A DNA stretch of 12,607 nt from a virus (lineage: Duplodnaviria > Heunggongvirae > Uroviricota > Caudoviricetes). Location: IMG/VR virus record IMGVR_UViG_2695420412_000012. One strand, 5' to 3'. Below the pieces are notes generated by a model. That model saw only the letters and a program-made list of their open reading frames with translations, was not told where the DNA came from and ran no database searches. The translations under genes and the position numbers were made by a program. Numbering within the stretch: the stretch's first letter is position 1; each line of letters starts with the position of its first letter. Positions 1 to 12,607 of this stretch are shown piece by piece.

Positions 1-135
1 GGCTGCCAGCCCTCTTTCAGTTTGTGTGTCAGCTTTTCCGCAAGGTCTGACGGCGACGCCGCCCTGACAACATCATAATGTTTAAATGTCATTATTCCTC
101 CCGGCCGGGATAGTGTATTAAATCAGATATGGAGT

Positions 136-180
136 GGGCTGTAGTCCGGAAGCCTGAATGACACACGGGGACTACAGCCC
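136..180. repeat. Perfect 12-bp inverted repeat (gggctgtagtcc / ggactacagccc, 136-147 and 169-180) around a 21-nt loop
   Basis: Read directly from the sequence; the arms are exact reverse complements. No ORF of 60 aa or more covers it. Confidence 0.5.
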
Positions 181-276
181 AAGAAATGAAAAAAGGCCAC
201 GCAGTTGCGCAGCCTGATAAACCCTGGTTAAAATCCACACGATAACAACACAACAATATCAGTATCTCATGCTATT

Positions 277-301
277 GCCCGAACCCATTCGGGCATTTTT
301 T
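277..301 (+). terminator. Rho-independent terminator (gcccgaa-ccca-ttcgggc followed by attttttacc)
   Basis: 7-bp GC-rich stem, 4-nt loop, then a T-run on the + strand. Confidence 0.55.
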
Positions 302-307
302 ACCCAT

Positions 308-338
308 AAAAAATGCCCCTCCGGAGAGGGGCATTTTT
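308..338. terminator. Bidirectional rho-independent terminator (A-run, atgcccctc-cgga-gaggggcat, T-run)
   Basis: Perfect 9-bp stem flanked by an A-run upstream and a T-run downstream, so it can terminate either strand. It would end the leftward (minus) late/accessory transcript. Confidence 0.65.
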
Positions 339-535
339 GCATGCACATTCTTTTTCTTGCATGGTGCCGGGTGCCTCCCGGTGAATTCAGTATCAGCACC
401 TGAATCCGCGATTATCACATATACCTACTTGCTGATTGCCCCTCCGCACAGGGGGATTCACCATGCAGTAGTATTTTTAATAAACAGCAAATAAAAAAAT
501 CAAGCATTATGCAGGCTGTTTCTTTTTATCACCGG

Positions 536-667
536 CTACAGCAATACCACAATGCCGCAGACCAGCACCCCATCCGCCAGCACCGACATGATTCTGCTGG
601 TGAAATCCACCATCACCACCAGAAACAGCAGGAGTGCAGCCACAGCCAGGCGCAGTTTTACCGTCAC
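536..667 (-). CDS. Small hydrophobic peptide, 43 codons from GTG (VTVKLRLAVAALLLFLVVMVDFTSRIMSVLADGVLVCGIVVLL)
   Basis: Hand-translated ORF. Its GTG overlaps the TerB-like stop in a GTGA arrangement; mostly hydrophobic residues consistent with one TM helix. Not in the ORF track because it is under 60 aa. Confidence 0.25.
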   Translation of the reverse strand: MTVKLRLAVAALLLFLVVMVDFTSRIMSVLADGVLVCGIVVLL

Positions 668-1059
668 AGGTGATTCTCCAGACGAAGACCCAGAACACCG
701 GCAATCTCTTCCAGCACCTTGCGCTCTTCCGGCTCAATTTCGCCGTCTGCCTCCGCAATGGCCACCGCCACATCCAGCACATCTTCCGCTTCACGCGTAT
801 CGTGTTTCACATCCTCGATCTCACGTAACGCCGCACGACGACCAGTTTTAAAGTTCGTATCCAGCTGACCGATAATGGTTGCGCTAATCGCATTAATTTC
901 TGACGTAAACGCGGACAGCGCAGGCTGATTACGCAGTACCTGTTCGATCTTCGCTTTCTAGGAAGCCTCACATTCACCATCTGCACAGGCCACCAGGTAG
1001 GCAGCATTAATAACCGCCTGTGCCAGATCGCGTTTCTCAAACTTTCCTTTTTCCGGTTA
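664..1059 (-). pseudogene. TerB-like (tellurite-resistance TerB fold) gene remnant interrupted by in-frame stops
   Basis: Minus-strand translation reads ...FEKRDLAQAVINAAYLVACADGECEAS*KAKIEQVLRNQPALSAFTSEINAISATIIGQLDTNFKTGRRAALREIEDVKHDTREAEDVLDVAVAIAEADGEIEPEERKVLEEIAGVLGLRLENHL*. The two ADGxxxxxE-type motifs resemble the TerB fold. There is a TAG at 958-960 and a TAA at 1057-1059 in frame, and no ATG in the frame. Confidence 0.4.
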
Positions 1060-1159
1060 ACGTGACACACCAATAACTCTTGTCGAAAAAGCCAGCAAGC
1101 TGAAAGACCGGTATTCACAACCACCAGCGCGTTTACTGTACTGGCGTGATTTCAGTCAT

Positions 1160-1183
1160 AAAAAAACCCGCCTGGCGACGGGT
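1160..1183 (-). terminator. tR'-like intrinsic terminator downstream of the late promoter
   Basis: On the minus strand, hairpin cccgtc-gcca-ggcggg followed by a T7 run (+ strand A-run at 1160-1166). Confidence 0.6.
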
Positions 1184-1218
1184 GTAAAAAATCTTCTAAC
1201 GTCAGGCATAAAACGCCC

Positions 1219-1258
1219 ATCGTTAGGGCAAATTTACCACAGATTCGGGAAAAATCAA
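1219..1258 (-). promoter_or_regulatory. Lambda-type late promoter pR' with pause/qut-like element
   Basis: Minus strand has TTGATT (-35, + coordinates 1253-1258), a 16-nt spacer, TAAATT (-10, 1231-1236), then ttgccctAACGATggg. This resembles the lambda pR' region as I recall it (ggtaaatttgactcaacgatggg). It lies directly 3' of Q. Confidence 0.6.
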
Positions 1259-1263
1259 CAAAG

Positions 1264-2085
1264 CTATCTGGTCACCTTTTTCAGTTGTTGTTCTGCCCAT
1301 GCTTCTTCAATATCAAACTGCACCACCAGCGTATCGTAAAAACGTTTAACTGTTTTTTTCCATGTATCAAGAGATATGGCATCGGTTACATTACATATGG
1401 CATTAAATGCCTCCGTTGAAGGTAATCTTTCATAGCCACGACCACCACAACGCTGGCAGTCTCTGATAACAGGCATACCACGTTTTACCGACTCTTCACG
1501 ATGAATGGCAACACCGCGCCCACGACAATCTTTACAGGCGGTGGAAACCTCCCCCTTCCCTCCACACTCCGGACAGGCAACTTTTACCACCTCCCTGACT
1601 TTTTTCCATTCCTCCCAGTAAGACGGATACACGCCTTTTGTGCACTTTGCCCACACTGGCGGCTTACCATCCGGATACTGGATCTTGTTTGTAAAAACCT
1701 CGCTTTCAATAAATTTTTTTCCGTGACAACAGGGGCACTGTTTTTTGCTCGCCGCGCTACGGGCATAATCTTCAAACGCATACGAAGCCATAATACGCAT
1801 CACTGCCGGTTTTATTTCTGCCGGGAGTTTTCTTAACGCCGCCACGCGATCACACCGACTGAGTGCATATTCTGTCAGCAATTCTGTTGCCCGCTCTCTG
1901 TCATTCATACTAATGCCCATTTTCCCAAGGAACGCAGAAAACCCCATCTCAGCCCAATTCTGTGTCATGCCCTGCGCGGCCATCACATCAGTGATACTCA
2001 GCGTATCTTTCGACGTTGAGGCCGATGCATCAGTCAGGCCGAGGGATTTTGGGGAGTAGTATTTCGGTAAATCTTCCAGTTTCAT
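1264..2085 (-). CDS. Q: Late-gene antiterminator Q (lambda Q family, 273 aa, with multiple CxxC zinc-binding pairs)
   Basis: ATG at 2083-2085. N-terminus ...YSPKS...TDVMAAQGM... and C-terminus ...LPSTEAFNAI...VKRFYDTLVVQ parallel lambda Q. Cys pairs CPCCHG, CPECGG, CKDCRG, CQRCGG. Followed by the pR'-like promoter. Confidence 0.9.
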   Translation of the reverse strand: MKLEDLPKYYSPKSLGLTDASASTSKDTLSITDVMAAQGMTQNWAEMGFSAFLGKMGISMNDRERATELLTEYALSRCDRVAALRKLPAEIKPAVMRIMASYAFEDYARSAASKKQCPCCHGKKFIESEVFTNKIQYPDGKPPVWAKCTKGVYPSYWEEWKKVREVVKVACPECGGKGEVSTACKDCRGRGVAIHREESVKRGMPVIRDCQRCGGRGYERLPSTEAFNAICNVTDAISLDTWKKTVKRFYDTLVVQFDIEEAWAEQQLKKVTR

Positions 2086-2456
2086 TTTTTGACCTGCCCT
2101 TCAAGCATTATGGGGTAAATCTTCCCCCCCAGACGTCCACCAGATACTGGCTGACCACGAACGATATTGATTTCATCAAACTGCTCATCGTCCATTAACA
2201 CTCCCGCATGCGTCAGCGCATCCAGCGGTGCTTTCAGGATATTGTCCAGGTCGCGACGACGCTTATCCGGTGGCTCCACAATAATCCTGATCGCCAGCCT
2301 TCCGGACAGATTTAATTTCAGTCGCTGCTGGCGAACAATAAGCGCCACATCACGGCGATAACGCTCACCGGCTTTTGATACAAAATATGTGCTGCCACGA
2401 CGTCGCCAGTAGGTGTTCACCGTCGGCGGGTAAGGCAAAACAAACTCTATACGCAT
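2082..2456 (-). CDS. rusA: RusA Holliday-junction resolvase (124 aa)
   Basis: ATG at 2454-2456. Motif [15 protein letters not shown] ... [30 protein letters not shown] is typical of the RusA family. Its stop overlaps the Q start (ATGA). Confidence 0.9.
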   Translation of the reverse strand: MRIEFVLPYPPTVNTYWRRRGSTYFVSKAGERYRRDVALIVRQQRLKLNLSGRLAIRIIVEPPDKRRRDLDNILKAPLDALTHAGVLMDDEQFDEINIVRGQPVSGGRLGGKIYPIMLEGQVKK

Positions 2457-2468
2457 CAGTAACCCCTT

Positions 2469-3500
2469 TTACCCAAGCACGCCGGTTGCAAAGGCGTGAT
2501 CAAGAAAACGAAAAATTAAATCAACCTGAGAACCATGCTTTTCTTCGAACGCCAGCGGATCCGCATGAAGCTCGTTGTGATGCTCCCGACACAGCGGTAG
2601 CGTGAAAATATCGTGGGATTTTGTTCCCATTCCGCCCTGACCATGACCAATCAGGTGATGGGGATCGTCGGCTGGCTTACTACAACACGCACACGGCTGT
2701 GTCTTCACCCAGCGTGTGTATTTCTCGTTAACCCAGCGGCGACGTTTAGGTCGTTTCATGAAAGATTCCGGAGACTCAGGATCAACGGCAATGCTGACCA
2801 CCGTCTTTTCCTGTGGTGGGTTCTGTTGCTGGTGGGCGTGAGGCAGCGGCGCAAGATTTTTTGTGCGCTGTTTCAGTATGCTGGTGGCGGTCTGCTCTCC
2901 CGGTACGATGTCGCTTTCACGGTACATTGAGCGGATTTTTTCTGCACGCAACCCCAGCGAACGACGTAATACCGCTTCCGGTAGCGCGTCCGCCACCTGA
3001 TTGCGGACCGCCCACCAGGATAATTCAGCCAAAGATAATTCACGCTCCTGCGTACCGCTTATTGCGTGACCAGGCGGCTTACCATCCGGATACTGGATCT
3101 TGTTTGTAAAAACCTCGCTTTCAATAAATTTTTTTCCGTGACAACAGGGGCACTGTTTTTTGCTCGCCGCGCTACGGGCATAATCTTCAAACGCATACGA
3201 AGCCATAATACGCATCACTGCCGGTTTTATTTCTGCCGGGAGTTTTCTTAACGCCGCCACGCGATCACACCGACTGAGTGCATATTCTGTCAGCAATTCT
3301 GTTGCCCGCTCTCTGTCATTCATACTAATGCCCATTTTCCCAAGGAACGCAGAAAACCCCATCTCAGCCCAATTCTGTGTCATGCCCTGCGCGGCCATCA
3401 CATCAGTGATACTCAGCGTATCTTTCGACGTTGAGGCCGATGCATCAGTCAGGCCGAGGGATTTTGGGGAGTAGTATTTCGGTAAATCTTCCAGTTTCAT
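2469..3500 (-). CDS. Chimeric in-frame ORF: Q N-terminal 143 codons fused to the C-terminal ~200 codons of the YdfU-like protein
   Basis: 3072-3500 matches the 5' part of Q at 1657-2085; 2469-3071 matches the 3' part of the 349-aa gene at 6204-6806. The breakpoint is at 3071/3072 (gtgacc|aggcggcttacc). The 343-aa ORF reads through it. Confidence 0.7.
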   Translation of the reverse strand: MKLEDLPKYYSPKSLGLTDASASTSKDTLSITDVMAAQGMTQNWAEMGFSAFLGKMGISMNDRERATELLTEYALSRCDRVAALRKLPAEIKPAVMRIMASYAFEDYARSAASKKQCPCCHGKKFIESEVFTNKIQYPDGKPPGHAISGTQERELSLAELSWWAVRNQVADALPEAVLRRSLGLRAEKIRSMYRESDIVPGEQTATSILKQRTKNLAPLPHAHQQQNPPQEKTVVSIAVDPESPESFMKRPKRRRWVNEKYTRWVKTQPCACCSKPADDPHHLIGHGQGGMGTKSHDIFTLPLCREHHNELHADPLAFEEKHGSQVDLIFRFLDHAFATGVLG

Positions 3501-3871
3501 TTTTTGACCTGCCCTTCAAGCATTATGGGGTAAATCTTCCCCCCCAGACGTCCACCAGATACTGGCTGACCACGAACGATATTGATTTCATCAAACTGCT
3601 CATCGTCCATTAACACTCCCGCATGCGTCAGCGCATCCAGCGGTGCTTTCAGGATATTGTCCAGGTCGCGACGACGCTTATCCGGTGGCTCTGCAATCAC
3701 CTTTATCGCCAGCCTTCCGGACAGGATTAATTTCAGCCGCTGCTGGCGAACAATAAGCGCCACAGCCCGGCGATAACGCTTTCCCTCCTCCGAGATAAAA
3801 TATGTGCTGCCACGACGTCGCCAGTAGGTGTTCACCGTTGGCGGGTAAGGTAAAACCAAATCTATGAGCAT
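3497..3871 (-). CDS. rusA: RusA resolvase, divergent copy (124 aa, MLIDLVLPYPP...)
   Basis: ATG at 3869-3871. Same family motifs as the other two copies but with several substitutions (N-terminus, IKVIAEPP, KRYRRAVALIV). Confidence 0.9.
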   Translation of the reverse strand: MLIDLVLPYPPTVNTYWRRRGSTYFISEEGKRYRRAVALIVRQQRLKLILSGRLAIKVIAEPPDKRRRDLDNILKAPLDALTHAGVLMDDEQFDEINIVRGQPVSGGRLGGKIYPIMLEGQVKK

Positions 3872-3883
3872 CAGTCACCTCTT

Positions 3884-4933
3884 TTACCCAAGCACGCCAG
3901 TTGCAAAGGCGTGATCAAGAAAACGAAAAATTAAATCAACCTGAGAGCCATGCTTTTCTTCGAACGCCAGCGGATCCGCATGAAGCTCGTTGTGATGCTC
4001 CCGACACAGCGGTAGCGTGAAAATATCGTGAGATTTTGTCCCCATTCCGCCCTGACCATGACCAATCAGGTGATGGGGATCGTCGGCTGGCTTACCACAA
4101 CACGCACACGGCTGAGTCTTCACCCAGCGTGTGTATTTCTCGTTAACCCAGCGGCGACGTTTAGGTCGTTTCATGAAAGATTCCGGAGACTCAGGATCAA
4201 CGGCAATGCTGACCACCGTCTTTTCCTGTGGTGGGTTCTGTTGCTGGTGGGCGTGAGGCAACGGTGCAAGATTTTTTGTGCGCTGTTTCAATATGCTGGT
4301 GGCGGTCTGCTCTCCCGGTACGATGTCGCTTTCGCGGTACACCGAGCAGATTTTTTCCGCTGGTAATCCCAGCGAGCGACGTAATACCGCTTCCGGTAGC
4401 GCGTCCGCCAGCTGATTGCGGACCGCCCACCAGGATAATTCAGCCAGAGATAATTCACGCTCCTGCGTACCGCTTATTGCGTGACCGATGACGTCAATCA
4501 TCCATGCTGACAGGTTTTGATGAGCAAGTTGCTCGAGTGATTCGGATGTCTGGTCACGCAGCTGGTTGTCGCAGTGCCAGCACAACACCATTGCGCCGGT
4601 ACCATATCGGTGAATAACGGTTTCGCTGTGATGATAATCGCCGTGTGGCCACTGGCAGGATTTAATATGGCGCAACAGCCAGTCAGACAATGCACCAGCA
4701 CCACCAGCAGCACGAATTACCCGTGCGTTACTGAAAAACGGCAGCAATGTTTTGTCTTCCACCAGCGGCTGGCGAACGGCAGGAACGACCCCGGACGGCA
4801 GATTACGCATGCTTTTCGGTTCCGGCTCCACCAGTAACCGGGTATTGTGGAATACCGGCATGGATTCACGGCCCGGCTTAACGATCACCAGCCCGAGTTC
4901 CGGTACCAGAACAGGTCGAAGTAATACCCGCAC
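3884..4933 (-). CDS. YdfU-like 349-aa protein with two Cys/His clusters (DUF968-type, putative HNH-like nuclease), divergent copy
   Basis: GTG at 4931-4933 with GGAGG 4 nt upstream. Cys/His clusters CQWPHGDYHH...CWHCDN and CACC...HHLIGHGQGG...CREHHNELH. Length and position (between a small gene and rusA/Q) match Qin prophage YdfU as I recall it. Confidence 0.8.
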   Translation of the reverse strand: MRVLLRPVLVPELGLVIVKPGRESMPVFHNTRLLVEPEPKSMRNLPSGVVPAVRQPLVEDKTLLPFFSNARVIRAAGGAGALSDWLLRHIKSCQWPHGDYHHSETVIHRYGTGAMVLCWHCDNQLRDQTSESLEQLAHQNLSAWMIDVIGHAISGTQERELSLAELSWWAVRNQLADALPEAVLRRSLGLPAEKICSVYRESDIVPGEQTATSILKQRTKNLAPLPHAHQQQNPPQEKTVVSIAVDPESPESFMKRPKRRRWVNEKYTRWVKTQPCACCGKPADDPHHLIGHGQGGMGTKSHDIFTLPLCREHHNELHADPLAFEEKHGSQVDLIFRFLDHAFATGVLG

Positions 4934-4934
4934 G

Positions 4935-5213
4935 TTACCTCCAGATGCGTTGCTGGAATGTGCGGGACGGACGCGGTGGGCGTTCGGAGTAAGGAAGCCT
5001 GACGGAGATTATCCAGTGACGGTAGTCGAGGCTAAGGGCTTTTTTAACCTCGTATCCGCGCCTGCGGTAACACTGAATTATCCATTCAGCCTGCTCTTCA
5101 GTGCATGGTGGATGCTGGAACCAGTCCGATTTGAATGCATGAAAACGCCGTCCGCACCTGCTGGCAAAGACGGCAGAATCATCAGAATTGTGTAATTTGG
5201 TATCGTGCGCCAT
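4935..5213 (-). CDS. Small protein (92 aa, MAHDTKLHNSDD...) in the position of Qin rem
   Basis: ATG at 5211-5213. Its stop abuts the GTG of the 349-aa gene. Second copy at 7255-7527. The longer 129-aa track ORF is an upstream extension without support. Confidence 0.55.
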   Translation of the reverse strand: MAHDTKLHNSDDSAVFASRCGRRFHAFKSDWFQHPPCTEEQAEWIIQCYRRRGYEVKKALSLDYRHWIISVRLPYSERPPRPSRTFQQRIWR

Positions 5214-5399
5214 CGGTTGTCTCTTCTGGCGCAGCAGGTGCCAGTTGTTCAGGCTGGCGTATAAAGTATAAATAAACTGGTTCCAGTGTAAAGCCCCTAC
5301 ATTAATGGAATAAAAGTCAAACAACAGATTGCTGGGATAAACACAACGCTTATTATTAAAAGCGATTAGATAAATTAAATTTTAATGTTATGCAATTTT

Positions 5400-5570
5400 A
5401 GGTAATGACTCCAACTTATTGATAGTGTTTTATGTTCAGATAATGCCCGATGACTTTGTCATGCAGCTCCACCGATTTTGAGAACGACAGCGACTTCCGT
5501 CCCAGCCGTGCCAGGTGCTGCCTCAGATTCAGGTTATGCCGCTCAATTCGCTGCGTATATCGCTTGCTGA
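5400..5570 (-). mobile_element. insB: IS1 remnant: right terminal inverted repeat plus the 3' end of insB, 171 bp
   Basis: ggtaatgactccaacttattgatagtg... is the IS1 terminal IR. The encoded tail ...[47 protein letters not shown] is the InsB C-terminus. IS1 identity stops at 5570, where Q sequence begins. Confidence 0.9.
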
Positions 5571-5820
5571 ACGCCGCCACACGATCGCACCGACTGAGTG
5601 CATAATCTGCCAGTAATTCTGTTGCCCGCGCCCTGTCATTCATACTGATGCCCATTTTCCCCAGGAACGCAGAAAACCCCATCTCAGCCCGATTCTGTGT
5701 CATGCCCTGCGCGGCCATCACATCAGTGATACTCAGCGCATCTTTTGACGTTGAGGCCGATGCATCGGTCAGGCAAGGGGATTTTGGGGAGTAGTATTTC
5801 GGTAAATCTTCCAGTTTCAT
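5416..5820 (-). pseudogene. Truncated Q (first ~83 codons, divergent allele) fused in frame to the insB 3' end
   Basis: 134-aa ORF: [30 protein letters not shown]...SRCDRVAA then IS1-derived [14 protein letters not shown].... Junction at 5570/5571. Confidence 0.85.
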
Positions 5821-6191
5821 TTTTTGACCTGCTCTTCATGCATTATGGGGTAAATCTTCACCCCCAGACGTCCACCAGATACTGGCTGACCACGAACGAT
5901 ATTGATTTCATCAAACTGCTCATCGTCCATTAACACTCCCGCATGCGTCAGCGCATCCAGCGGTGCTTTCAGGATATTGTCCAGGTCGCGACGACGCTTA
6001 TCCGGTGGCTCCACAATAATCCTGATCGCCAGCCTTCCGGACAGATTTAATTTCAGTCGCTGCTGGCGAACAATAAGCGCCACATCACGGCGATAACGCT
6101 CACCGGCTTTTGATACAAAATATGTGCTGCCACGACGTCGCCAGTAGGTGTTCACCGTCGGCGGGTAAGGCAAAACAAACTCTATACGCAT
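5817..6191 (-). CDS. rusA: RusA resolvase (124 aa)
   Basis: Almost identical to 2082-2456 except at the 3' end ([15 protein letters not shown]), where the overlapping Q allele differs. Confidence 0.9.
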
Positions 6192-6203
6192 CAGTAACCC
6201 CTT

Positions 6204-7253
6204 TTACCCAAGCACGCCGGTTGCAAAGGCGTGATCAAGAAAACGAAAAATTAAATCAACCTGAGAACCATGCTTTTCTTCGAACGCCAGCGGATCCGCA
6301 TGAAGCTCGTTGTGATGCTCCCGACACAGCGGTAGCGTGAAAATATCGTGGGATTTTGTTCCCATTCCGCCCTGACCATGACCAATCAGGTGATGGGGAT
6401 CGTCGGCTGGCTTACTACAACACGCACACGGCTGTGTCTTCACCCAGCGTGTGTATTTCTCGTTAACCCAGCGGCGACGTTTAGGTCGTTTCATGAAAGA
6501 TTCCGGAGACTCAGGATCAACGGCAATGCTGACCACCGTCTTTTCCTGTGGTGGGTTCTGTTGCTGGTGGGCGTGAGGCAGCGGCGCAAGATTTTTTGTG
6601 CGCTGTTTCAGTATGCTGGTGGCGGTCTGCTCTCCCGGTACGATGTCGCTTTCACGGTACATTGAGCGGATTTTTTCTGCACGCAACCCCAGCGAACGAC
6701 GTAATACCGCTTCCGGTAGCGCGTCCGCCACCTGATTGCGGACCGCCCACCAGGATAATTCAGCCAAAGATAATTCACGCTCCTGCGTACCGCTTATTGC
6801 GTGACCGATGACGTCAATCATCCATGCTGACAAGTTTTGGTGAGCAAGTTGCTCAAGTGATTCTGAGGTCTGGTCACGCAACTGGTTGTCGCAGTGCCAG
6901 CACAACACCATTGCGCCGGTACCATAACGGTGAATGACGGTTTCACTGTGGTGATAATCACCGTGTGGCCACTGGCAGGATTTAATATGGCGCAACAGCC
7001 AGTCAGACAGTGCACCAGCGCCGCCAGCAGCACGAATCACACGCTCATTGCTGAAAAATGGCAGTAATGATTTATCCTCCGCCAGCGGCTGGCGAACGGC
7101 AGGGACGACTCCGGATGGCAGGCCGCACATGCTTTTCGGTTCCGGCTCCACCAGCACTCGAGGATTATGAAATATCTGTATGGATTCACGGCCCGGCTTA
7201 AGGACCACCAGCCCAAGCTCAGGCACCAGAACAGGTCTAAGTAATACCCGCAC
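6204..7253 (-). CDS. YdfU-like 349-aa Cys/His-rich protein (DUF968-type, putative HNH-like nuclease)
   Basis: Full-length copy. Its 3' 600 bp is identical to 2469-3071. Confidence 0.8.
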   Translation of the reverse strand: MRVLLRPVLVPELGLVVLKPGRESIQIFHNPRVLVEPEPKSMCGLPSGVVPAVRQPLAEDKSLLPFFSNERVIRAAGGAGALSDWLLRHIKSCQWPHGDYHHSETVIHRYGTGAMVLCWHCDNQLRDQTSESLEQLAHQNLSAWMIDVIGHAISGTQERELSLAELSWWAVRNQVADALPEAVLRRSLGLRAEKIRSMYRESDIVPGEQTATSILKQRTKNLAPLPHAHQQQNPPQEKTVVSIAVDPESPESFMKRPKRRRWVNEKYTRWVKTQPCACCSKPADDPHHLIGHGQGGMGTKSHDIFTLPLCREHHNELHADPLAFEEKHGSQVDLIFRFLDHAFATGVLG

Positions 7254-7254
7254 G

Positions 7255-7527
7255 TTACCTCCAGATCCGTTGCTGGAAAGTGCGGGACGGACGTGGTGGG
7301 CGTTCGGAATAAGGCAGCCTGACAGAGATTATCCAGTGCCGATAGTCGAGACTGAGAGCTTTCTTAACCTCGAACCCGCGCCTGCGGTAAGAATGAATCA
7401 GCCATTCGGCCTGTTCTTCAGTACATGGTGGGTGTTGGTACCAGTCGGTTTTAAATGCGTGTGAACGCCGCTCATGCCGGATGGCAAGGTCGGTATCAGA
7501 ATTGTGAAATTTGGTTTTGTGCGCCAT
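7255..7527 (-). CDS. Small protein (90 aa, MAHKTKFHNSDTD...), rem-position gene
   Basis: ATG at 7525-7527. Paralog of 4935-5213. Confidence 0.55.
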   Translation of the reverse strand: MAHKTKFHNSDTDLAIRHERRSHAFKTDWYQHPPCTEEQAEWLIHSYRRRGFEVKKALSLDYRHWIISVRLPYSERPPRPSRTFQQRIWR

Positions 7528-7597
7528 CTGTTTTCTCTGCTGGCGCAGCAGGTGTCAGGTGTTCAGGCTGACGTGCGAATTGTAAACCAGAATGCCA

Positions 7598-7626
7598 GGA
7601 AAAAACAAAACCCGCCGAAGCGGGTT
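7598..7626 (-). terminator. Rho-independent terminator downstream of hok (aacccgc-cgaa-gcgggtt then T-rich tract on the minus strand)
   Basis: Perfect 7-bp stem at 7609-7626. The + strand A-rich run at 7598-7610 becomes the T-run for minus transcripts. Confidence 0.65.
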
Positions 7627-7694
7627 AAGTGCGGGTGCGTTGAGGATGCCTGACACATCAGAGGTGGCGAGGGATTTCTCCCCCGCCAGGTCTC

Positions 7695-7850
7695 TTACTC
7701 CTCAGGTTCGTAAGCTGTGAAGACAGCGACCTCCGTCTGGCCGGTTCGGATTCGTACCTCGCAGAGGTCTTTCCTCGTTACCAGTGCCGTCACTATGACG
7801 GTTAAACAGATGACGATCAGGGCGATTAACATCGCCTTTTGCTGCTTCAT
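7695..7850 (-). CDS. hok: Hok-family membrane toxin (51 aa, HokD/RelF-like)
   Basis: MKQQKAMLIALIVICLTVIVTALVTRKDLCEVRIRTGQTEVAVFTAYEPEE shows the Hok signature (TM helix, TRKxLCE, EVAxFxAYE). AAGGAG lies 9 nt upstream. An in-frame upstream ATG at 7905-7907 would give a 70-codon mok-like extension. Confidence 0.9.
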   Translation of the reverse strand: MKQQKAMLIALIVICLTVIVTALVTRKDLCEVRIRTGQTEVAVFTAYEPEE

Positions 7851-8109
7851 AGCCTGCTTCTCCTTGCCTTTCGGCACGTAAGAGGCTAACCTAGATTTGC
7901 CGTTCATAGATTGAGCCTCAGATTAATGTTAAGCGTCTTGCAGGACGCGTAATGTTAACTGGGGCTTTTCTCTATCTGCCTTTTGGTGTTCATGCCTGAG
8001 ACAGATAGCCTCAAGCACCCGCAGTCATTCTACTTAACTAAGATTTCCCCGCAAACCGTTTTTGTCCGGCACAGTAAATATCCAACTAAACCAATGGCGT
8101 TCGCTGTAT

Positions 8110-8289
8110 TTACCGCCAGTATTCAATGCACATGACCGCCATGAACACCCCTAAAAAAAGGGCATTTATATATCCAAATATTAATATCAAAACATCAACT
8201 TTTTCCATATACCTTGCTGTGAAGATGATGGGCATACATGATACGAACAACCAGAACGCAACAAACAAAAACTGCAATGCGTTTTTCAT
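8110..8289 (-). CDS. Small membrane protein (59 aa, two predicted TM segments) in an AT-rich island
   Basis: ATG at 8287-8289 preceded by AGGAGG 4 nt upstream. Sequence MKNALQFLFVAFWLFVSCMPIIFTARYMEKVDVLILIFGYINALFLGVFMAVMCIEYWR. The surrounding 8100-8420 is markedly AT-rich. Confidence 0.5.
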   Translation of the reverse strand: MKNALQFLFVAFWLFVSCMPIIFTARYMEKVDVLILIFGYINALFLGVFMAVMCIEYWR

Positions 8290-8459
8290 TATTCCTCCTA
8301 CAATCAATGTGCAATTACATTTAAACACACCTCAATTTGGCCGGACATATAAATATCTAAACCAGAAAAAATCACTTACATAGCGTTACAAACTCTTTAG
8401 TCTAAATATTCATCGTAAAACATTCCCCATACTTATCAGCCCGTTCTGCGCCAGGTAGC

Positions 8460-8776
8460 TCATTGCCTTATCTGGGAATCTGTAATCAGGTTTCCGGATG
8501 CTGGTGGATTTTCGCGTTTTAGTTGTTCATAAAAGTGCACAGCTTTAACCAGTTCTTCTGATGTAACCGGGACTGGCGGGGCAGTGAATAAGGCCTGAAT
8601 TTCATAGTTCGGCCTGTCGTTACAATCCTCTTTTTTCGGTACATATTTCCAGTCACCAGACCACTACTTCCCCTGAAAGTCCGTAACGCCTTTTTTTTCA
8701 CGTAGCGATATCGCCATGCCACTGTTTTTGCTTGCCCCGCCGTTTCATGCCCTTCCTGATAATTAACCTCGCTCAT
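8460..8776 (-). pseudogene. Apparently frameshifted gene (about 110 aa if repaired) with the shift at a T6 homopolymer (8631-8636)
   Basis: Frame 1 gives MSEVNYQEGHETAGQAKTVAWRYRYVKKKALRTFRGSSGLVTGN then low-complexity sequence. The alternative frame after the A6/T6 run gives a protein-like tail ...EDCNDRPNYEIQALFTAPPVPVTSEELVKAVHFYEQLKRENPPASGNLITDSQIRQ* ending at 8460. Confidence 0.3.
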
Positions 8777-8949
8777 TCATCGCCCCACTCATCACAATAT
8801 GCTTCGACCGGAGTTTTTCCTGCTTCATAATCATCACGCCATGCTTCAGCATCAGCAGCACTGCCACCACGTAACTCTGCATAGTCCATTAACAGTTCAT
8901 GCCATTCTTCAAAACTGACGTTGTATTTAGTTGAACCAAAATCAGCCAT
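8773..8949 (-). CDS. Small acidic protein (58 aa, MADFGSTKYNVSFEEWHELLMDYAELRGGSAADAEAWRDDYEAGKTPVEAYCDEWGDE)
   Basis: Hand-translated. Its ATG overlaps the stop of the upstream acidic ORF (ATGGCTGA), suggesting translational coupling. Confidence 0.45.
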   Translation of the reverse strand: MADFGSTKYNVSFEEWHELLMDYAELRGGSAADAEAWRDDYEAGKTPVEAYCDEWGDE

Positions 8950-9124
8950 TTTGTTCTTCCTCTTCGTCTTTTATTTCGTGATATGAGTAATTGCAGTAGT
9001 TAAAGAAAATATCTTTTGCTTCGTCATGTATTTCATCAGGCGTCGCATCATCATCCACTTCGAATTCATCCTCGAAATCTCCACCGGCTATTCCCGTTTC
9101 AATAATTATTTTAAACTTTCGCAT
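8942..9124 (-). CDS. Small highly acidic protein (60 aa, ...GGDFEDEFEVDDDATPDEIHDEAKD...EIKDEEEEQNG)
   Basis: ATG at 9122-9124. An AGGAGG on the minus strand is separated from the ATG by the perfect hairpin ccgccc-tttc-gggcgg (9132-9147). Confidence 0.5.
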   Translation of the reverse strand: MRKFKIIIETGIAGGDFEDEFEVDDDATPDEIHDEAKDIFFNYCNYSYHEIKDEEEEQNG

Positions 9125-9217
9125 TTAACTACCGCCCTTTCGGGCGGCCTCCTGATGTTCTGAGGGTGCAGAAATCCCTCCGGTTAAGGATTAAATTTTT
9201 AACAGAGCTAAATTTAA

Positions 9218-9574
9218 TTATTCAGTTCTGGATTTTGTCGCCCTGCGTATCCGCGCTTTCGCGTTACGCTCAATCTGAATTAGCTTTTCTATATTTTTTC
9301 GCCTTTCCCGCTCCTCCTGACGCAAGAGCCTTACATCATCTGCCAGTCTGGTTTCTCTTTTCGCCACAGAGAACATCCAGTCAAATGGCTCCACAACTGC
9401 ACCGCAGATTTTACAGCGGACCTGACGCTCTTTTTCGTCAACCCGGACAGAGGCGTGATGACAATATGGTCTTTCCGATGGCTCATAAAGAAAATTAACC
9501 TGATTACGAGGGTCATCCTCTTTTACCGGAAATAAAACGATATTGCTTAACTCATCCTCTGGTTTTATTTCCAT
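9218..9574 (-). CDS. Hypothetical 118-aa protein with a CHH...CxxC zinc-ribbon-like motif and a basic C-terminal tail
   Basis: Start chosen at the ATG at 9572-9574, which has AAGGAGAGGAGC directly upstream. The track ORF starts at a GTG at 9631 with a poorly spaced SD. Confidence 0.6.
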   Translation of the reverse strand: MEIKPEDELSNIVLFPVKEDDPRNQVNFLYEPSERPYCHHASVRVDEKERQVRCKICGAVVEPFDWMFSVAKRETRLADDVRLLRQEERERRKNIEKLIQIERNAKARIRRATKSRTE

Positions 9575-9631
9575 GCTCCTCTCCTTTGATGCGAATGCCA
9601 GCGGTAATTGAAGCCTGATAGCTAATTTCAC

Positions 9632-10054
9632 TCACAGTACCGCCTCCTGAAAATTACCCTGATAGAAAGCCAGTACACGCTGCATAGCTTCACTCTTCCG
9701 GCACTCGCGACAGATTATGTTTAGGCGACTGTCGTAGCGACGTATTTCTCCGTCAGGTAACGACCAGATAAGGTCCGGATCAACCACAACCGGTTTCTTC
9801 AGCTTTGCCCTCGATAATTTTTTGCGGGCATTTTGCCAGTCTTTACGAGCCTGTTCAGACGGGAATAACCCGTAGCCAGAATTGTATACATCGCCACTGG
9901 CAACCAGCTCTCTGGCCAGAACGCTCATCAGATATCTTGTTACCCCAGTTTTAGTTTCCAGTTGTCGTAACGTCTCGCGCCCACTCTGGCGTACGAGTTC
10001 AACAACCTGTCCTTTAATTTTTTCCCGCTCTTCTTGTGTAAAAACTTTTGCCAC
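9632..10054 (-). CDS. Hypothetical 140-aa protein, possibly HTH-containing
   Basis: GTG at 10052-10054 with AGGAGG 4 nt upstream. Protein-like composition; possible HTH around TLRQLETKTGVTRYLMSVLAREL. Confidence 0.6.
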   Translation of the reverse strand: MAKVFTQEEREKIKGQVVELVRQSGRETLRQLETKTGVTRYLMSVLARELVASGDVYNSGYGLFPSEQARKDWQNARKKLSRAKLKKPVVVDPDLIWSLPDGEIRRYDSRLNIICRECRKSEAMQRVLAFYQGNFQEAVL

Positions 10055-10094
10055 AAGCCCTCCTGAAAATTACCTCATGACCAGAAATTAACAC

Positions 10095-11165
10095 TTACCC
10101 CCTGAAGCCCGGCGGAATTTCGTTATCCGGTTCAGAAATATGATTCACACAACGCTGGTTGTTCGTGCCGCTTACCGGGAGCAACCAGGGGTTCTCAAAA
10201 TTCCGGTCCGGTCCAAAAAACGTCGTCGCTCGCTGAACAAATTCCGTTCCCGTTTTCCCGGTAGCCGCCAAGTATCTTGCGTAACGCCTCACGCCATCCA
10301 GCATGGCCTCTGGTGGCACCCCCTCGCGTAATCTGGCCTTCCATGCACTGAAAGCGGATTTCTTCGGGTTTGCTCCGGCACGCAACGGGTACTCCCGCCA
10401 GACCTGTTCGAACACATCCGGATAATCCACTCGTCCCACAGACAGCCCGGTGTTTTCCGGGACTACCCGATCGGCTTCCCGCTGAATGGCGGAATCGGCT
10501 TCGGGCTGCTGCAGTTGGTGTGATTGCTCCAGCCTTGCGGTCATCACCTGCTGCACAGCGCCCGAATCGGCTTTCAGCGCATACGCTGAATCGGCTTCCG
10601 GTGTCGTGCCTGCTGGCTGACCAGGATTGACGGTCTGAACATCCCCTGCCTGGTTCGTGGCGTTTTTTACGCCATGGACCATAGTGTTTTGATCTTCTTG
10701 ATCTGTATCTTTATCTGTATCTTTATCTGTCGTGACTCGTCGTGACATGTGCGTGACATTTCGTGACGCGCCGTGACAATCGCCATTTTGTTCCCGCTTT
10801 CTTTCCCTCTCTCGCTGCGCCCTCTTGCGCTCTGCAGGAGATTTTGCGGTTTGCGAAATATTGCCGTTGTCCTCTTTAAGCACCTGGCGTTTTTCCCATC
10901 CAGTGATTAAATCACCATCAAGTACCCGCCCCTGCATCGTCTGCAAAATTGAATCAATTACCTCTTCTGTCACGTCGAGCGCACTTGCCAAATCTTCTGT
11001 CGTGACATCAATGTGACCTCGCGTGACATTTCGTGACGCGCTCACCAGGAGGTGGATATACACTGCCATCACTGTTGCAATTGGCTGCCCTGACACCCTG
11101 GCAATTGTTCGCCACTTAGGGTCATTTGGCATGTCATGCCATAATCTGAGCCAGGCGTTAGCCAT
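10095..11165 (-). CDS. Replication initiation / replisome-organizer protein (lambda O / Rac YdaU-like, about 356 aa) containing the origin iterons
   Basis: ATG at 11163-11165 with GAGGTGA upstream. N-terminus NAWLRLWHDMPNDPKWRTIAR... resembles replisome-organizer N-domains. Two iteron clusters lie inside the gene, as ori lies inside lambda O. Confidence 0.75.
   Translation of the reverse strand: MANAWLRLWHDMPNDPKWRTIARVSGQPIATVMAVYIHLLVSASRNVTRGHIDVTTEDLASALDVTEEVIDSILQTMQGRVLDGDLITGWEKRQVLKEDNGNISQTAKSPAERKRAQRERERKREQNGDCHGASRNVTHMSRRVTTDKDTDKDTDQEDQNTMVHGVKNATNQAGDVQTVNPGQPAGTTPEADSAYALKADSGAVQQVMTARLEQSHQLQQPEADSAIQREADRVVPENTGLSVGRVDYPDVFEQVWREYPLRAGANPKKSAFSAWKARLREGVPPEAMLDGVRRYARYLAATGKTGTEFVQRATTFFGPDRNFENPWLLPVSGTNNQRCVNHISEPDNEIPPGFRG
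10701..10777. repeat. Iteron cluster 1: 12-bp tandem repeat (atctgtatcttt, 2.5 copies) then five CGTGAC motifs spaced about 10 bp apart
   Basis: CGTGAC at about 10732, 10741, 10752, 10762 and 10772. The repeats translate as ...RRVTTDKDTDKDTDQ... in the linker of the replication protein. Confidence 0.65.
10999..11040. repeat. Iteron cluster 2: four (C/T)GTGAC motifs spaced about 10 bp apart
   Basis: cgtgac / tgtgac / cgtgac / cgtgac. The 21-mer gcgtgacatttcgtgacgcgc is shared exactly with cluster 1. Confidence 0.6.
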
Positions 11166-11236
11166 ACTCACCTCTTCTGATACCGAATCTTTTTACTCAC
11201 GAGTTGCCGGAAGCGATTCGATATGGCTATTGTCAG

Positions 11237-11662
11237 TCAATGTACTGCCACAGCATTTCCTGCCGGGCCACCACGGTTCATCTGATTGAAACCGGCGATT
11301 GCCACTGCGACAAAATCATCAGCGTCTCTCACCAGTCGCTCCCGCGTCTCCACCAGCTCCCGAAAATAAGCTGAACTGTGGCTGCGCATTCTGGCCACCA
11401 GCAAAGGTGGCATTGCCTTTTCGATCGCTGGTAACAACGCCTGAATTTTTTCAACTGCATCAGGGGTGTCTTTCTCTACCCAGCGGAAAATTTTCTGGGT
11501 ATTGCGAGCCAGGGCTTCCGGATGGCTGTCGTCATACAGTTCTGGGAACGTCATACCCAGTTCAAAATAAGCCCTGGTTATTTCAGCTGCCGGAACTTTT
11601 TCACCGTCCGGATGCGCCCAGGCATTCATCGCCATGCGGATGTGTTCATGCTTGATTTTCAT
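11237..11662 (-). CDS. YdaT-like 141-aa protein (Rac-type early gene)
   Basis: ATG at 11660-11662 with AGGAG 8 nt upstream. Overlaps the Cro-like gene by 17 nt. Same size and position as Rac YdaT, directly after the Cro-like gene. Confidence 0.65.
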   Translation of the reverse strand: MKIKHEHIRMAMNAWAHPDGEKVPAAEITRAYFELGMTFPELYDDSHPEALARNTQKIFRWVEKDTPDAVEKIQALLPAIEKAMPPLLVARMRSHSSAYFRELVETRERLVRDADDFVAVAIAGFNQMNRGGPAGNAVAVH

Positions 11663-11927
11663 GAATCAAGCTCCTAGAAAGTGGTTGTGTTAACGTTTTG
11701 GTATCTTCCAGCTCGGGCCAAATATTCATCCAATCAAAAGGCCTTAGTTGCTGACGTGTAACTTCACCATTACTGGCTCGCTCAATAAGGACGCATAACG
11801 ATGCCCCTAACACTTGACCTTTACTCAATGCCTTTCTTAGATAACCGATGCTGGTACCACACTCGCATGCAAACATACGCTGTTCATCTGACGAAAGAGA
11901 ATTGAGAAATATTCTTAATTCTTCCAT
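11646..11927 (-). CDS. Cro/YdaS-like HTH regulator (93 aa)
   Basis: ATG at 11925-11927 with AAGGAG 5 nt upstream. HTH-like segment CGTSIGYLRKALSKGQ. Divergent from the repressor gene across the operator region. Confidence 0.7.
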   Translation of the reverse strand: MEELRIFLNSLSSDEQRMFACECGTSIGYLRKALSKGQVLGASLCVLIERASNGEVTRQQLRPFDWMNIWPELEDTKTLTQPLSRSLIHENQA

Positions 11928-11954
11928 AGCTACTCCTTAGTAAACACAGTAAAG

Positions 11955-11991
11955 AATACCCACAGGTAAACAAAAGTCAATACCCACAGGT
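11955..11991. promoter_or_regulatory. Operator-like direct repeats (aatacccacaggt twice, centres 24 bp apart) in the divergent repressor/cro intergenic region
   Basis: Exact 13-mers at 11955-11967 and 11979-11991. An inverted repeat aggtaaacaa / ttgtttacct flanks the second copy. Confidence 0.6.
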
Positions 11992-12027
11992 TGTTTACCT
12001 TGCGGTAATCGCATCTATTATTTACCT

Positions 12028-12447
12028 ATGGACAAATATGAATTTAGACGACAGCAACTCATCAAAATTCGTGATGAGAAATGCGATGGTAAAGCGGTTA
12101 ACGTGGCCAGAAAGATCGGGCGCGAGCCTTCTTATGTATCAAGAATGTTGTACCCAGAGGGGAAAAAGGGAAAAAAACGGATCGCTGATGATATGGTGGA
12201 GATTATCGAAGAGTCCTTTGGGTTACCCCGGGGATGGATGGATGGTATCGTTTCATCATCAACGAACACAGCCTCCAGTTATGAAACAAGGGTTCTAACG
12301 CCACGACAACGTATTTTTTTAGATCTCTTAGACGAACTGCCAGAAAGTGAAGCGGATAACTTATTAAAAACTCTTGAAGAGAAAAAACAGTATTACAATA
12401 TGATCTACGAAGAAATCCGTAAAAAGAAAGCACAAAACGCATCATAG
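12028..12447 (+). CDS. Prophage repressor-like HTH protein (139 aa, RacR/CI-position)
   Basis: ATG at 12028. HTH-like segment KAVNVARKIGREPSYVSRML. It is the only clear + strand gene and is divergent from the cro-like gene. No obvious S24 peptidase motifs. Confidence 0.7.
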   Translation: MDKYEFRRQQLIKIRDEKCDGKAVNVARKIGREPSYVSRMLYPEGKKGKKRIADDMVEIIEESFGLPRGWMDGIVSSSTNTASSYETRVLTPRQRIFLDLLDELPESEADNLLKTLEEKKQYYNMIYEEIRKKKAQNAS

Positions 12448-12483
12448 CTCACCAAACAACTAGTCACCAGTTAAGACACCGCA

Positions 12484-12520
12484 AAAAGTTACCCATGGGT
12501 ATTTACTTTTTAAATACCTA
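12484..12520. promoter_or_regulatory. Second pair of operator-like sites (acccatgggtat and acctatgggtat, 25 bp apart) downstream of the repressor gene
   Basis: Palindromic acccatgggt at 12484-12495 and a near-copy at 12509-12520. Both are related to the reverse complement of the 11955 motif (acctgtgggtat). Confidence 0.5.
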
Positions 12521-12607
12521 TGGGTATCCTTCTTTTCATACCAACCCACCCCGCCCCACAGAATGCAGGGCAATACTTCGAGTTACCAGGCAGTGGTCAG
12601 GGGTTAA

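Follow-up and report, generated by a model that had tools for sequence, protein, structure and literature searches.

An apparent triple rusA–DUF968–Q array in an Escherichia coli record is very probably a scaffold of contigs from two similar lambdoid prophages

The window, by which we mean the whole stretch of DNA analysed (12,607 bases), contains between 1264 and 7527 three rusA genes, two full and one partial DUF968 (ydfU) genes, and one full and two partial Q antiterminator genes, all on the minus strand (Table 1). PF03589, PF05866, and PF06147 matches lie in conserved order, with hok/sok adjoining. Exact proteins are found on 835 contigs for the full Q, on 518 for DUF968_B, and on 535 for RusA_C. 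This inventory agrees with the initial annotation except for its two rem-position genes: the 90- and 92-aa ORFs lack a Pfam match at E <= 0.001, leaving the Rem family (PF27490) unmatched, and on contig L012 a separate 83-aa Rem gene (PF27490) adjoins the homologue of the 92-aa ORF. Judged from their sequences, neither ORF is Rem. The window also holds the right end of an IS1 element, missed earlier, which is 99.4-100% identical to IS1 in contigs L020 and L006 and whose boundary with the prophage is also present in contigs L015-L017. A complete IS1 (~768 bases, both terminal inverted repeats) is absent from the window, where this one end is all that is found; the genome probably carries a full element that was not assembled in this record. 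H31 (AP025220) was rejected as a match to the IS1 junction, being a Qin remnant whose IS1B lies elsewhere.

Table 1. Features of the window, in order of position. P1 and P2 denote the two prophages to which the sequence types are assigned.
Feature	Coordinates	Strand	Details
Contig block cA	1..3071		Late-region leader, full Q, mosaic rusA, 3' 603 bases of DUF968 gene; ends at N 3072; 1-2276 P2 type, 2277-3071 P1 type
Q, full-length antiterminator	1264..2085	-	273 aa; PF03589, E = 4.7e-50
rusA copy A	2082..2456	-	124 aa; PF05866; 3' end P2 type, 5' two thirds P1 type
151-base run in rusA	2126..2276, 3541-3691, 5861-6011		Identical in all three copies
DUF968 3' fragment	2469-3071	-	
Annotated 'Q::DUF968 fusion' ORF	2469..3500	-	343 aa; spans N at 3072
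Scaffold gap J1	3072		N in CYFU01000082.1; joins DUF968 middle to Q middle
Contig block cB	3073..5569		Piece of P2: Q 5' 428 bases, rusA_B, DUF968_B, 92-aa ORF, upstream spacer, 169 bases of IS1 end
Q 5' fragment, middle	3073-3500	-	428 bases
rusA_B (P2)	3497..3871	-	124 aa; PF05866
DUF968/ydfU_B (P2)	3884..4933	-	349 aa; PF06147, E = 6.4e-77
92-aa ORF, 'rem position' of P2	4935..5213	-	
IS1 right end	5401..5569		169 bases, terminal inverted repeat included; cut by scaffold gap
Scaffold gap J2	5570		N in CYFU01000082.1; joins IS1 interior to Q codon ~83
Contig block cC	5571..12607		Piece of P1: Q_C 5' 250 bases, rusA_C, DUF968_C, 90-aa ORF, hok/sok; early region with DUF7167, DUF977, YdaT-like and YdaS-like genes, repressor
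Q_C 5' fragment, P1 allele of Q	5571..5820	-	250 bases
rusA_C (P1)	5817..6191	-	124 aa; PF05866
DUF968/ydfU_C (P1)	6204..7253	-	349 aa; PF06147
90-aa ORF, 'rem position' of P1	7255..7527	-	

Repeats were mapped by self-BLAST of the window together with the positions of mismatches. The middle and right copies (3244-5260 versus 5564-7574) are 91.3% identical, confirming that the middle copy is a divergent allele. The left copy, copy A (1658-3071), differs from 3073-4486 at 49 positions, every one within 2277-3032, and over 1829-3071 it differs from 5564-6806 at 21 positions, every one within 1831-2125. Its left part (1658-2276) is exactly the middle copy (3073-3691) over 619 bases, and its right part (2126-3071) is exactly the right copy (5861-6806) over 946 bases, the switch from P2 type to P1 type falling within the 151-base run at 2126-2276. 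The copies are thus not simple duplicates, as had been noted, the left one being a mosaic of the other two. The match of the middle Q 5' fragment to the full Q was also correctly recognized, with the fragment starting at 3073 rather than 3072, whereas the stated identity of 2082-3071 to 5817-6806 is broken by three mismatches (2098, 2104, and 2125) and is exact only over 2126-3071. Directly from these alignments, copy A has zero private bases; since all of its bases recur unchanged in the middle copy or in the right one, copy A adds no independent sequence. This redundant copy lies in a block whose repeats, shared with the two blocks joined to it, are able to mislead read-pair links. P1 and P2 have exact runs of 151, 145, 83, and 65 bases in common.

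The window covers record CYFU01000082.1 (12,607 bases) from end to end; this record belongs to the draft E. coli assembly GCA_001286305.1. Window and record differ at just two positions, 3072 and 5570, both 'N' in the record and 'A' in the window. The gap characters stand exactly at the block joins, and both array-forming junctions are unsequenced, with a single N at each in place of determined sequence. The two points had been mapped before the Ns were seen, 3072 as an orphan base between flanks with zero homology (self-BLAST) and 5570/5571 as the place beyond which sibling contigs no longer match the window. Of the 12,607 positions, precisely these two carry the single Ns, a coincidence that chance does not explain. 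Because the Ns lie at both non-homologous junctions, the record consists of three contigs placed in a scaffold (1-3071, 3073-5569, and 5571-12607), and no observed sequence puts the three blocks next to one another. One N could in principle represent a lone ambiguous base within a true junction. We also asked whether the contigs end at branch points of a de Bruijn graph and rejected this idea, given that 3073 and 5571 lie outside the shared runs and 3071 alone lies inside one, 39 bases into the 65-base run common to P1 and P2. Two models that took the array as real were dropped because the junctions are Ns. In one, a tandem duplication of 1,415 bases was followed by gene conversion in which the right copy served as donor; in the other, homologous deletion came after a duplication of 3.7 kb.

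We therefore conclude, with a probability of about 0.9, that the apparent triple array is an assembly artefact in which contigs of two similar prophages were joined across one-base gaps. An assembly chimera of several prophages had been offered earlier as an alternative, and this part of the suggestion stands; for the 'collapsed assembly' put beside it, 'scaffolding join' is the more exact term. It is extremely unlikely that the array is real, i.e., that two resident lambdoid prophages recombined into a three-copy mosaic with an in-frame Q::DUF968 fusion gene, either by illegitimate and homologous recombination or by template switching in replication, each N being an uncalled base. Such an origin would accommodate the head-to-tail arrangement of the three copies in a single orientation and the activity of IS1 in the lineage, and the 151-base identical run could support a RecA-mediated crossover. 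However, neither junction is sequenced, both being N; a genuine new junction contains k-mers found nowhere else and is easy to assemble, and an unclosed one-base gap suggests that no read bridges it. A real array would also require two illegitimate joins without microhomology plus a crossover, three rare events independent of one another and each unique to this assembly, and would have left copy A with zero private differences. That the J1 join is in frame speaks for a real array, but this is a 1-in-3 coincidence.

Comparison with related genomes, proposed initially as a way of following the array, gave the same answer, as J1 and J2 have no occurrence in 5,426 complete E. coli genomes and, with any base permitted at the N, no match in metagenome or species-representative collections; neither junction thus recurs in independent assemblies or closed genomes. 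The relatives directly display one module per prophage, with the blocks lying apart or arranged more simply. When 1-1657 is joined to 3073-5569, eight contigs from other assemblies (L011 and L013-L019) match across the breakpoint at 99.93-100%, and the same model aligns with CP074756, a closed chromosome, at 99.93% identity over 3,985 bases, where the annotation gives a single Q, a single RusA, and a single DUF968 in the order of the module. In other assemblies, a 100% match runs from inside IS1 to 3073 and then continues with window positions 1657..1. On the other side, sibling contigs L002-L006 and L008 are 99.97-100% identical to the window as far as position 5571, beyond which they contain the remainder of Q and the late genes of P1. 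Because these P1 contigs carry the gene on past 5571, Q_C is cut by the contig end and not by a biological break; the fragment at 5571-5820 is, as initially suggested, a different allele of Q. Modules B and C are found on separate contigs in three other drafts (L003/L015, L004/L016, and L008/L017), and in those three drafts the prophage around module C is complete, its genes including those for integrase, lysis, and terminase. The initial suggestion of two different alleles from two lambdoid prophages was right. The proposed tandem mosaic triplication by recombination between lambdoid phages is not supported, on three counts, by junctions that are Ns, by a redundant copy A, and by relatives with one module per prophage. 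The triplication is not a real feature and is biologically of no importance; the real content of the record is ordinary, two lambdoid prophages with modules ~91% identical and an IS1 insertion.

Lambdoid prophages residing in the same chromosome are known to recombine in pathogenic E. coli, and a further reading accepts the joins as false and takes cA as a true third sequence. In that case cA could belong to a hybrid prophage that arose when P1 and P2 exchanged homologous sequence within rusA, perhaps in only some of the cultured cells, or to an additional prophage with Q, mosaic rusA, and C-type DUF968. The stretches common to P1 and P2 are recombination substrates, and the exact RusA_A protein is shared by this contig with just one other, an unrelated Logan contig, so the combination is viable. 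Because the protein exists in that one unrelated sample, a mosaic allele like RusA_A is biologically possible. We rejected the Logan contig as independent read support, as it comes from another sample and its DNA is just 95.8% identical to cA, marking it as a different recombinant. Moreover, cA matches cB and then cC exactly and switches inside the one run that short reads cannot phase, which is the signature of a wrong-branch walk, and the sibling assemblies show the parental P2 arrangement with no cA-like contig. We regard a true third sequence as quite improbable.

In the scaffolding explanation that we prefer, the isolate carries two related lambdoid prophages. P1 reads early region, hok/sok, 90-aa ORF, DUF968_C, rusA_C, Q_C, and late genes, and P2 reads IS1, 92-aa ORF, DUF968_B, rusA_B, Q, TerB/DUF3927/DUF1737-SASA, and late genes. 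With exact stretches of up to 151 bases shared between their modules and beyond short-read phasing, short-read assembly yielded cC from P1, cB from P2 with its end within the multi-copy IS1, and cA. The last is the late-side piece of P2, which we infer took the P1 allele instead of that of P2 at the 151-base run in rusA. Since 619 bases of cA and cB and 946 bases of cA and cC are identical, read pairs would link all three contigs, and a greedy scaffolder may then have lined them up with a single N per join that was never closed.

As to the software that might have made the joins, a single N in SSPACE denotes a zero or negative estimated gap. A literature search on SSPACE negative-gap handling returned no usable statement, and a search by assembly accessions found no assembler or scaffolder for GCA_001286305.1. 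In a pipeline of Velvet, SSPACE, and GapFiller, an N separates joined contigs, and greedy tools 'can lead to false joins' (Page et al. 2016, PMC5320598); GapFiller extends contigs from each end, and the gaps that remain open are mostly in repeats (PMC3446322).

The Ns were later turned into 'A', thereby producing the apparent triplication, an apparent in-frame Q::DUF968 fusion gene, and an apparent Q::insB hybrid ORF. The 343-aa fusion is an annotation artefact. Its codon at the gap is CCN, which encodes Pro whichever base is present, and among about 15 billion proteins it is found on 1 contig, this one; it is nevertheless present in protein databases (CTZ88690.1 / WP_409976112.1). More generally, records labelled as contigs can retain single-N scaffold gaps, and when Ns are made ordinary bases before a scan, the false joins become invisible and resemble rearrangements, gene fusions, or mosaic alleles. 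Scan pipelines should therefore keep or flag Ns.

The window resembles the false joins of greedy short-read scaffolders such as those described for SSPACE/GapFiller (PMC5320598), in which repeat-sharing contigs stand in a row with N between them. Here too the joins lie in prophage and IS repeats, and the contig ends are redundant, as would follow from two-sided gap extension; the pipeline description fits the window and is not tied to GCA_001286305.1. With real enterobacterial tandem duplications that have short-junction endpoints, the window shares head-to-tail copies and a junction between unrelated sequences. In those duplications, however, the junction is sequenced and the copies are initially identical, whereas in the window the junction is N and the extra copy is a two-allele patchwork. 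The genes themselves correspond to the hok / DUF968 (ydfU) / rusA / Q (quuQ-type) module of Qin-/Rac-like prophages, with the same order and the same families (PF01848, PF06147, PF05866, and PF03589). Thousands of genomes contain this module as one unit of 3.06 kb, and once the scaffold joins are removed, the alleles of the window show no difference from it.

The window is the reverse complement of an entire 12,607-base record, CYFU01000082.1, which belongs to GCA_001286305.1, a draft E. coli assembly. The two differ at exactly two positions, 3072 and 5570, where the deposited record has N and the window has A. Both sites (3072 and 5570/5571) had been located as breakpoints independently, before the Ns were known: 3072 is an orphan base between the middle of DUF968 and the middle of Q, with flanks that share no mutual homology, and 5570/5571 is the point where the match ends for every related contig of P1, one of two related lambdoid prophages (P1 and P2). 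Because both array-forming joins are N in the record, they are scaffold gaps and were never sequenced, and the record is made up of three contigs, cA (1-3071), cB (3073-5569) and cC (5571-12607). The initial annotation described a tandem mosaic triplication of a rem-ydfU-rusA-Q module at 1264-7527; the repeat pattern is present in the window, but with N at both joins it does not amount to a real array. Scaffolding produced the tandem array as well as the Q::DUF968 fusion and the Q::insB hybrid ORF.

All genes of 1264-7527 lie on the minus strand, and Q, RusA, DUF968 and Hok were all recognised in a Pfam search. No Pfam family was found for the 92- and 90-aa ORFs, which had been described as rem-position genes, and locus L012 has a true Rem gene (PF27490) of its own adjoining the 92-aa ORF. 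These ORFs, upstream of DUF968, are distinct from Rem and very widespread, each exact sequence occurring on 1,000 or more contigs. DUF968 copy B also has a weak, sub-threshold match to PF16784, a putative HNH nuclease family (E = 1.1e-4, residues 271-319), which agrees with a His/Cys-rich motif near its C-terminus.

Genes and RNAs of the repeated region and its surroundings
Feature	Coordinates	Strand	Family
Q, full, 273 aa	1264-2085	-	PF03589
rusA copy A, 124 aa	2082-2456	-	PF05866
rusA copy B, 124 aa	3497-3871	-	PF05866
rusA copy C, 124 aa	5817-6191	-	PF05866
DUF968/ydfU copy B, full, 349 aa	3884-4933	-	PF06147
DUF968/ydfU copy C, full, 349 aa	6204-7253	-	PF06147
343-aa ORF, Q residues 1-143 joined in frame with the 200 C-terminal residues of DUF968	2469-3500	-	
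Q 5' fragment	5571-5820	-	
92-aa ORF ('rem position')	4935-5213	-	no Pfam match
90-aa ORF ('rem position')	7255-7527	-	no Pfam match
Hok toxin gene and sok antitoxin RNA	7695-7907 and 7845-8020	-	PF01848; RF01794
AgvB (anti-GcvB sRNA)	240-301	+	Rfam
STnc100	302-492	-	Rfam

Self-BLAST and base-by-base comparison of the window defined the repeat relations. Segments 1658-3071 and 3073-4486 repeat with a period of 1,415 bases and 49 mismatches, all confined to 2277-3032; 1829-3071 and 5564-6806 differ by 21 mismatches, all within 1831-2125; and 3244-5260 is 91.3% identical to 5564-7574. Between 2082-3071 and 5817-6806, previously called identical, there are three base differences. Copy A, the left unit, is a patchwork because it equals the middle copy B exactly over 1658-2276 and the right copy C exactly over 2126-3071, the switch from B-type to C-type falling within a 151-base rusA stretch identical in all three copies. 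Each base of 1658-3071 has an exact duplicate in cB or cC. That cA is a true third module despite false joins, as a hybrid of P1 and P2 or as an additional prophage, is unlikely. One unrelated Logan contig does encode the RusA_A protein, yet its DNA has just 95.8% identity to cA; relative to cB and cC, cA shows no difference of its own.

Three further draft genomes have modules B and C on different contigs. Module C is located in complete prophage P1 (for example L002-L006 and L008), ordered integrase, early region, hok, 90-aa ORF, DUF968_C, rusA, Q, DUF3927, PmrD, holin, lysozyme, terminase and portal; as far as 5571 their identity to the window is 99.97-100%, and beyond it they carry the remainder of Q. 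Module B, of P2, is located on short contigs (L015-L017) whose starts lie within the same IS1 end; they are 100% identical to the window as far as 3073 and pass from there directly to window 1657..1. A model joining window 1-1657 to 3073-5569 is matched uninterrupted across the breakpoint by 8 contigs of other assemblies (99.93-100%) and by the closed chromosome CP074756 (99.93% over 3,985 bases), where the annotation lists a single copy each of Q, RusA, DUF968 and the 92-aa ORF, plus hokD. Most matching complete E. coli genomes carry a single 3.06-kb module. Neither join is present in 5,426 complete E. coli genomes or, with any base permitted at the N, in the metagenome and species-representative collections. 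It is very improbable that the array is real and that a single base went uncalled at each junction: two illegitimate joins plus a crossover would be required, each of them peculiar to this isolate, and reads would have had to fail on one base at exactly those joins. The real content is unremarkable: a pair of lambdoid prophages whose hok/DUF968/rusA/Q modules are paralogous, and one IS1 insertion.

The 343-aa fusion protein was found by exact look-up among ~15 billion proteins on one contig only, CYFU01000082.1, and the same search showed the unmixed alleles to be common (DUF968_B on 518 contigs, Q on 835, RusA_C on 535). The fusion ORF was annotated across the gap because the codon CCN encodes proline for any base. 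This artefactual entry, spanning a scaffold gap, is deposited as CTZ88690.1/WP_409976112.1, in a UniRef cluster that bears the name of a DUF968 protein.

The IS1 end (5401-5569), overlooked in the initial annotation, marks an insertion upstream of the P2 92-aa ORF, with a boundary common to several related drafts (the starts of L015-L017). The sibling L006 has an IS1 end (1-115) in the P1 early region; IS1 has been active in the prophages of this lineage. The P1 Q is called as a truncated 101-aa product in some relatives (L002-L004) and in full, at 273 aa, in others (L006, L007, L009, L010); next-gene spacing is unchanged beside the short form, so the truncation is likely a point mutation or frameshift, and Q is likely a pseudogene in part of the lineage.

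Around the module, Hok and the sok antitoxin RNA (112 bits) form a hok/sok type I toxin-antitoxin locus. AgvB (96.5 bits) and STnc100 (146.2 bits), both prophage-borne sRNAs scoring above gathering, lie ~0.8-1.0 kb past the Q 3' end, in the late-leader region. A 47-base imperfect direct repeat (10726-10771 and 10996-11041, 85% identity) within a 358-aa early-region ORF (10095-11171) may represent origin iterons inside a replication gene, or chance. At 11237-12447, YdaT-like (PF06254) and YdaS-like (weak PF15943) genes diverge from a 139-aa repressor-like ORF, whose L002 homologue carries HTH_3; this is a Rac-type immunity region.

The useful lesson is methodological. Replacing N with A hid the scaffolding origin of the joins; should such replacement be routine ahead of scanning, scaffold gaps may be concealed in further windows too. 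In SSPACE scaffolds, a lone N stands for a gap estimated at zero or below. Most likely, the artefact arose as follows. The P1 and P2 modules are ~91% identical, with exact shared runs of 151, 145, 83 and 65 bases, and IS1 is multi-copy. Contig cA runs along P2 from the late side to the 151-base rusA run and then along the P1 allele, a switch expected if the extension was greedy or took the wrong branch of the graph. Identical sequence common to cA and cB amounts to 619 bases, and that common to cA and cC to 946, so the three contigs would be tied together by read pairs in an overlapping geometry that makes no sense, and a scaffolder would then line them up in a row. The Velvet, SSPACE and GapFiller pipeline for large bacterial collections places N between joined contigs, and its authors warn that greedy tools 'can lead to false joins' (Page et al. 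2016, PMC5320598); GapFiller extends contigs from each end, and gaps left unclosed lie mostly in repeats (PMC3446322). By description, the N-separated joins and open repeat gaps of an SSPACE/GapFiller-type pipeline (PMC5320598, PMC3446322) fit the picture in the window.
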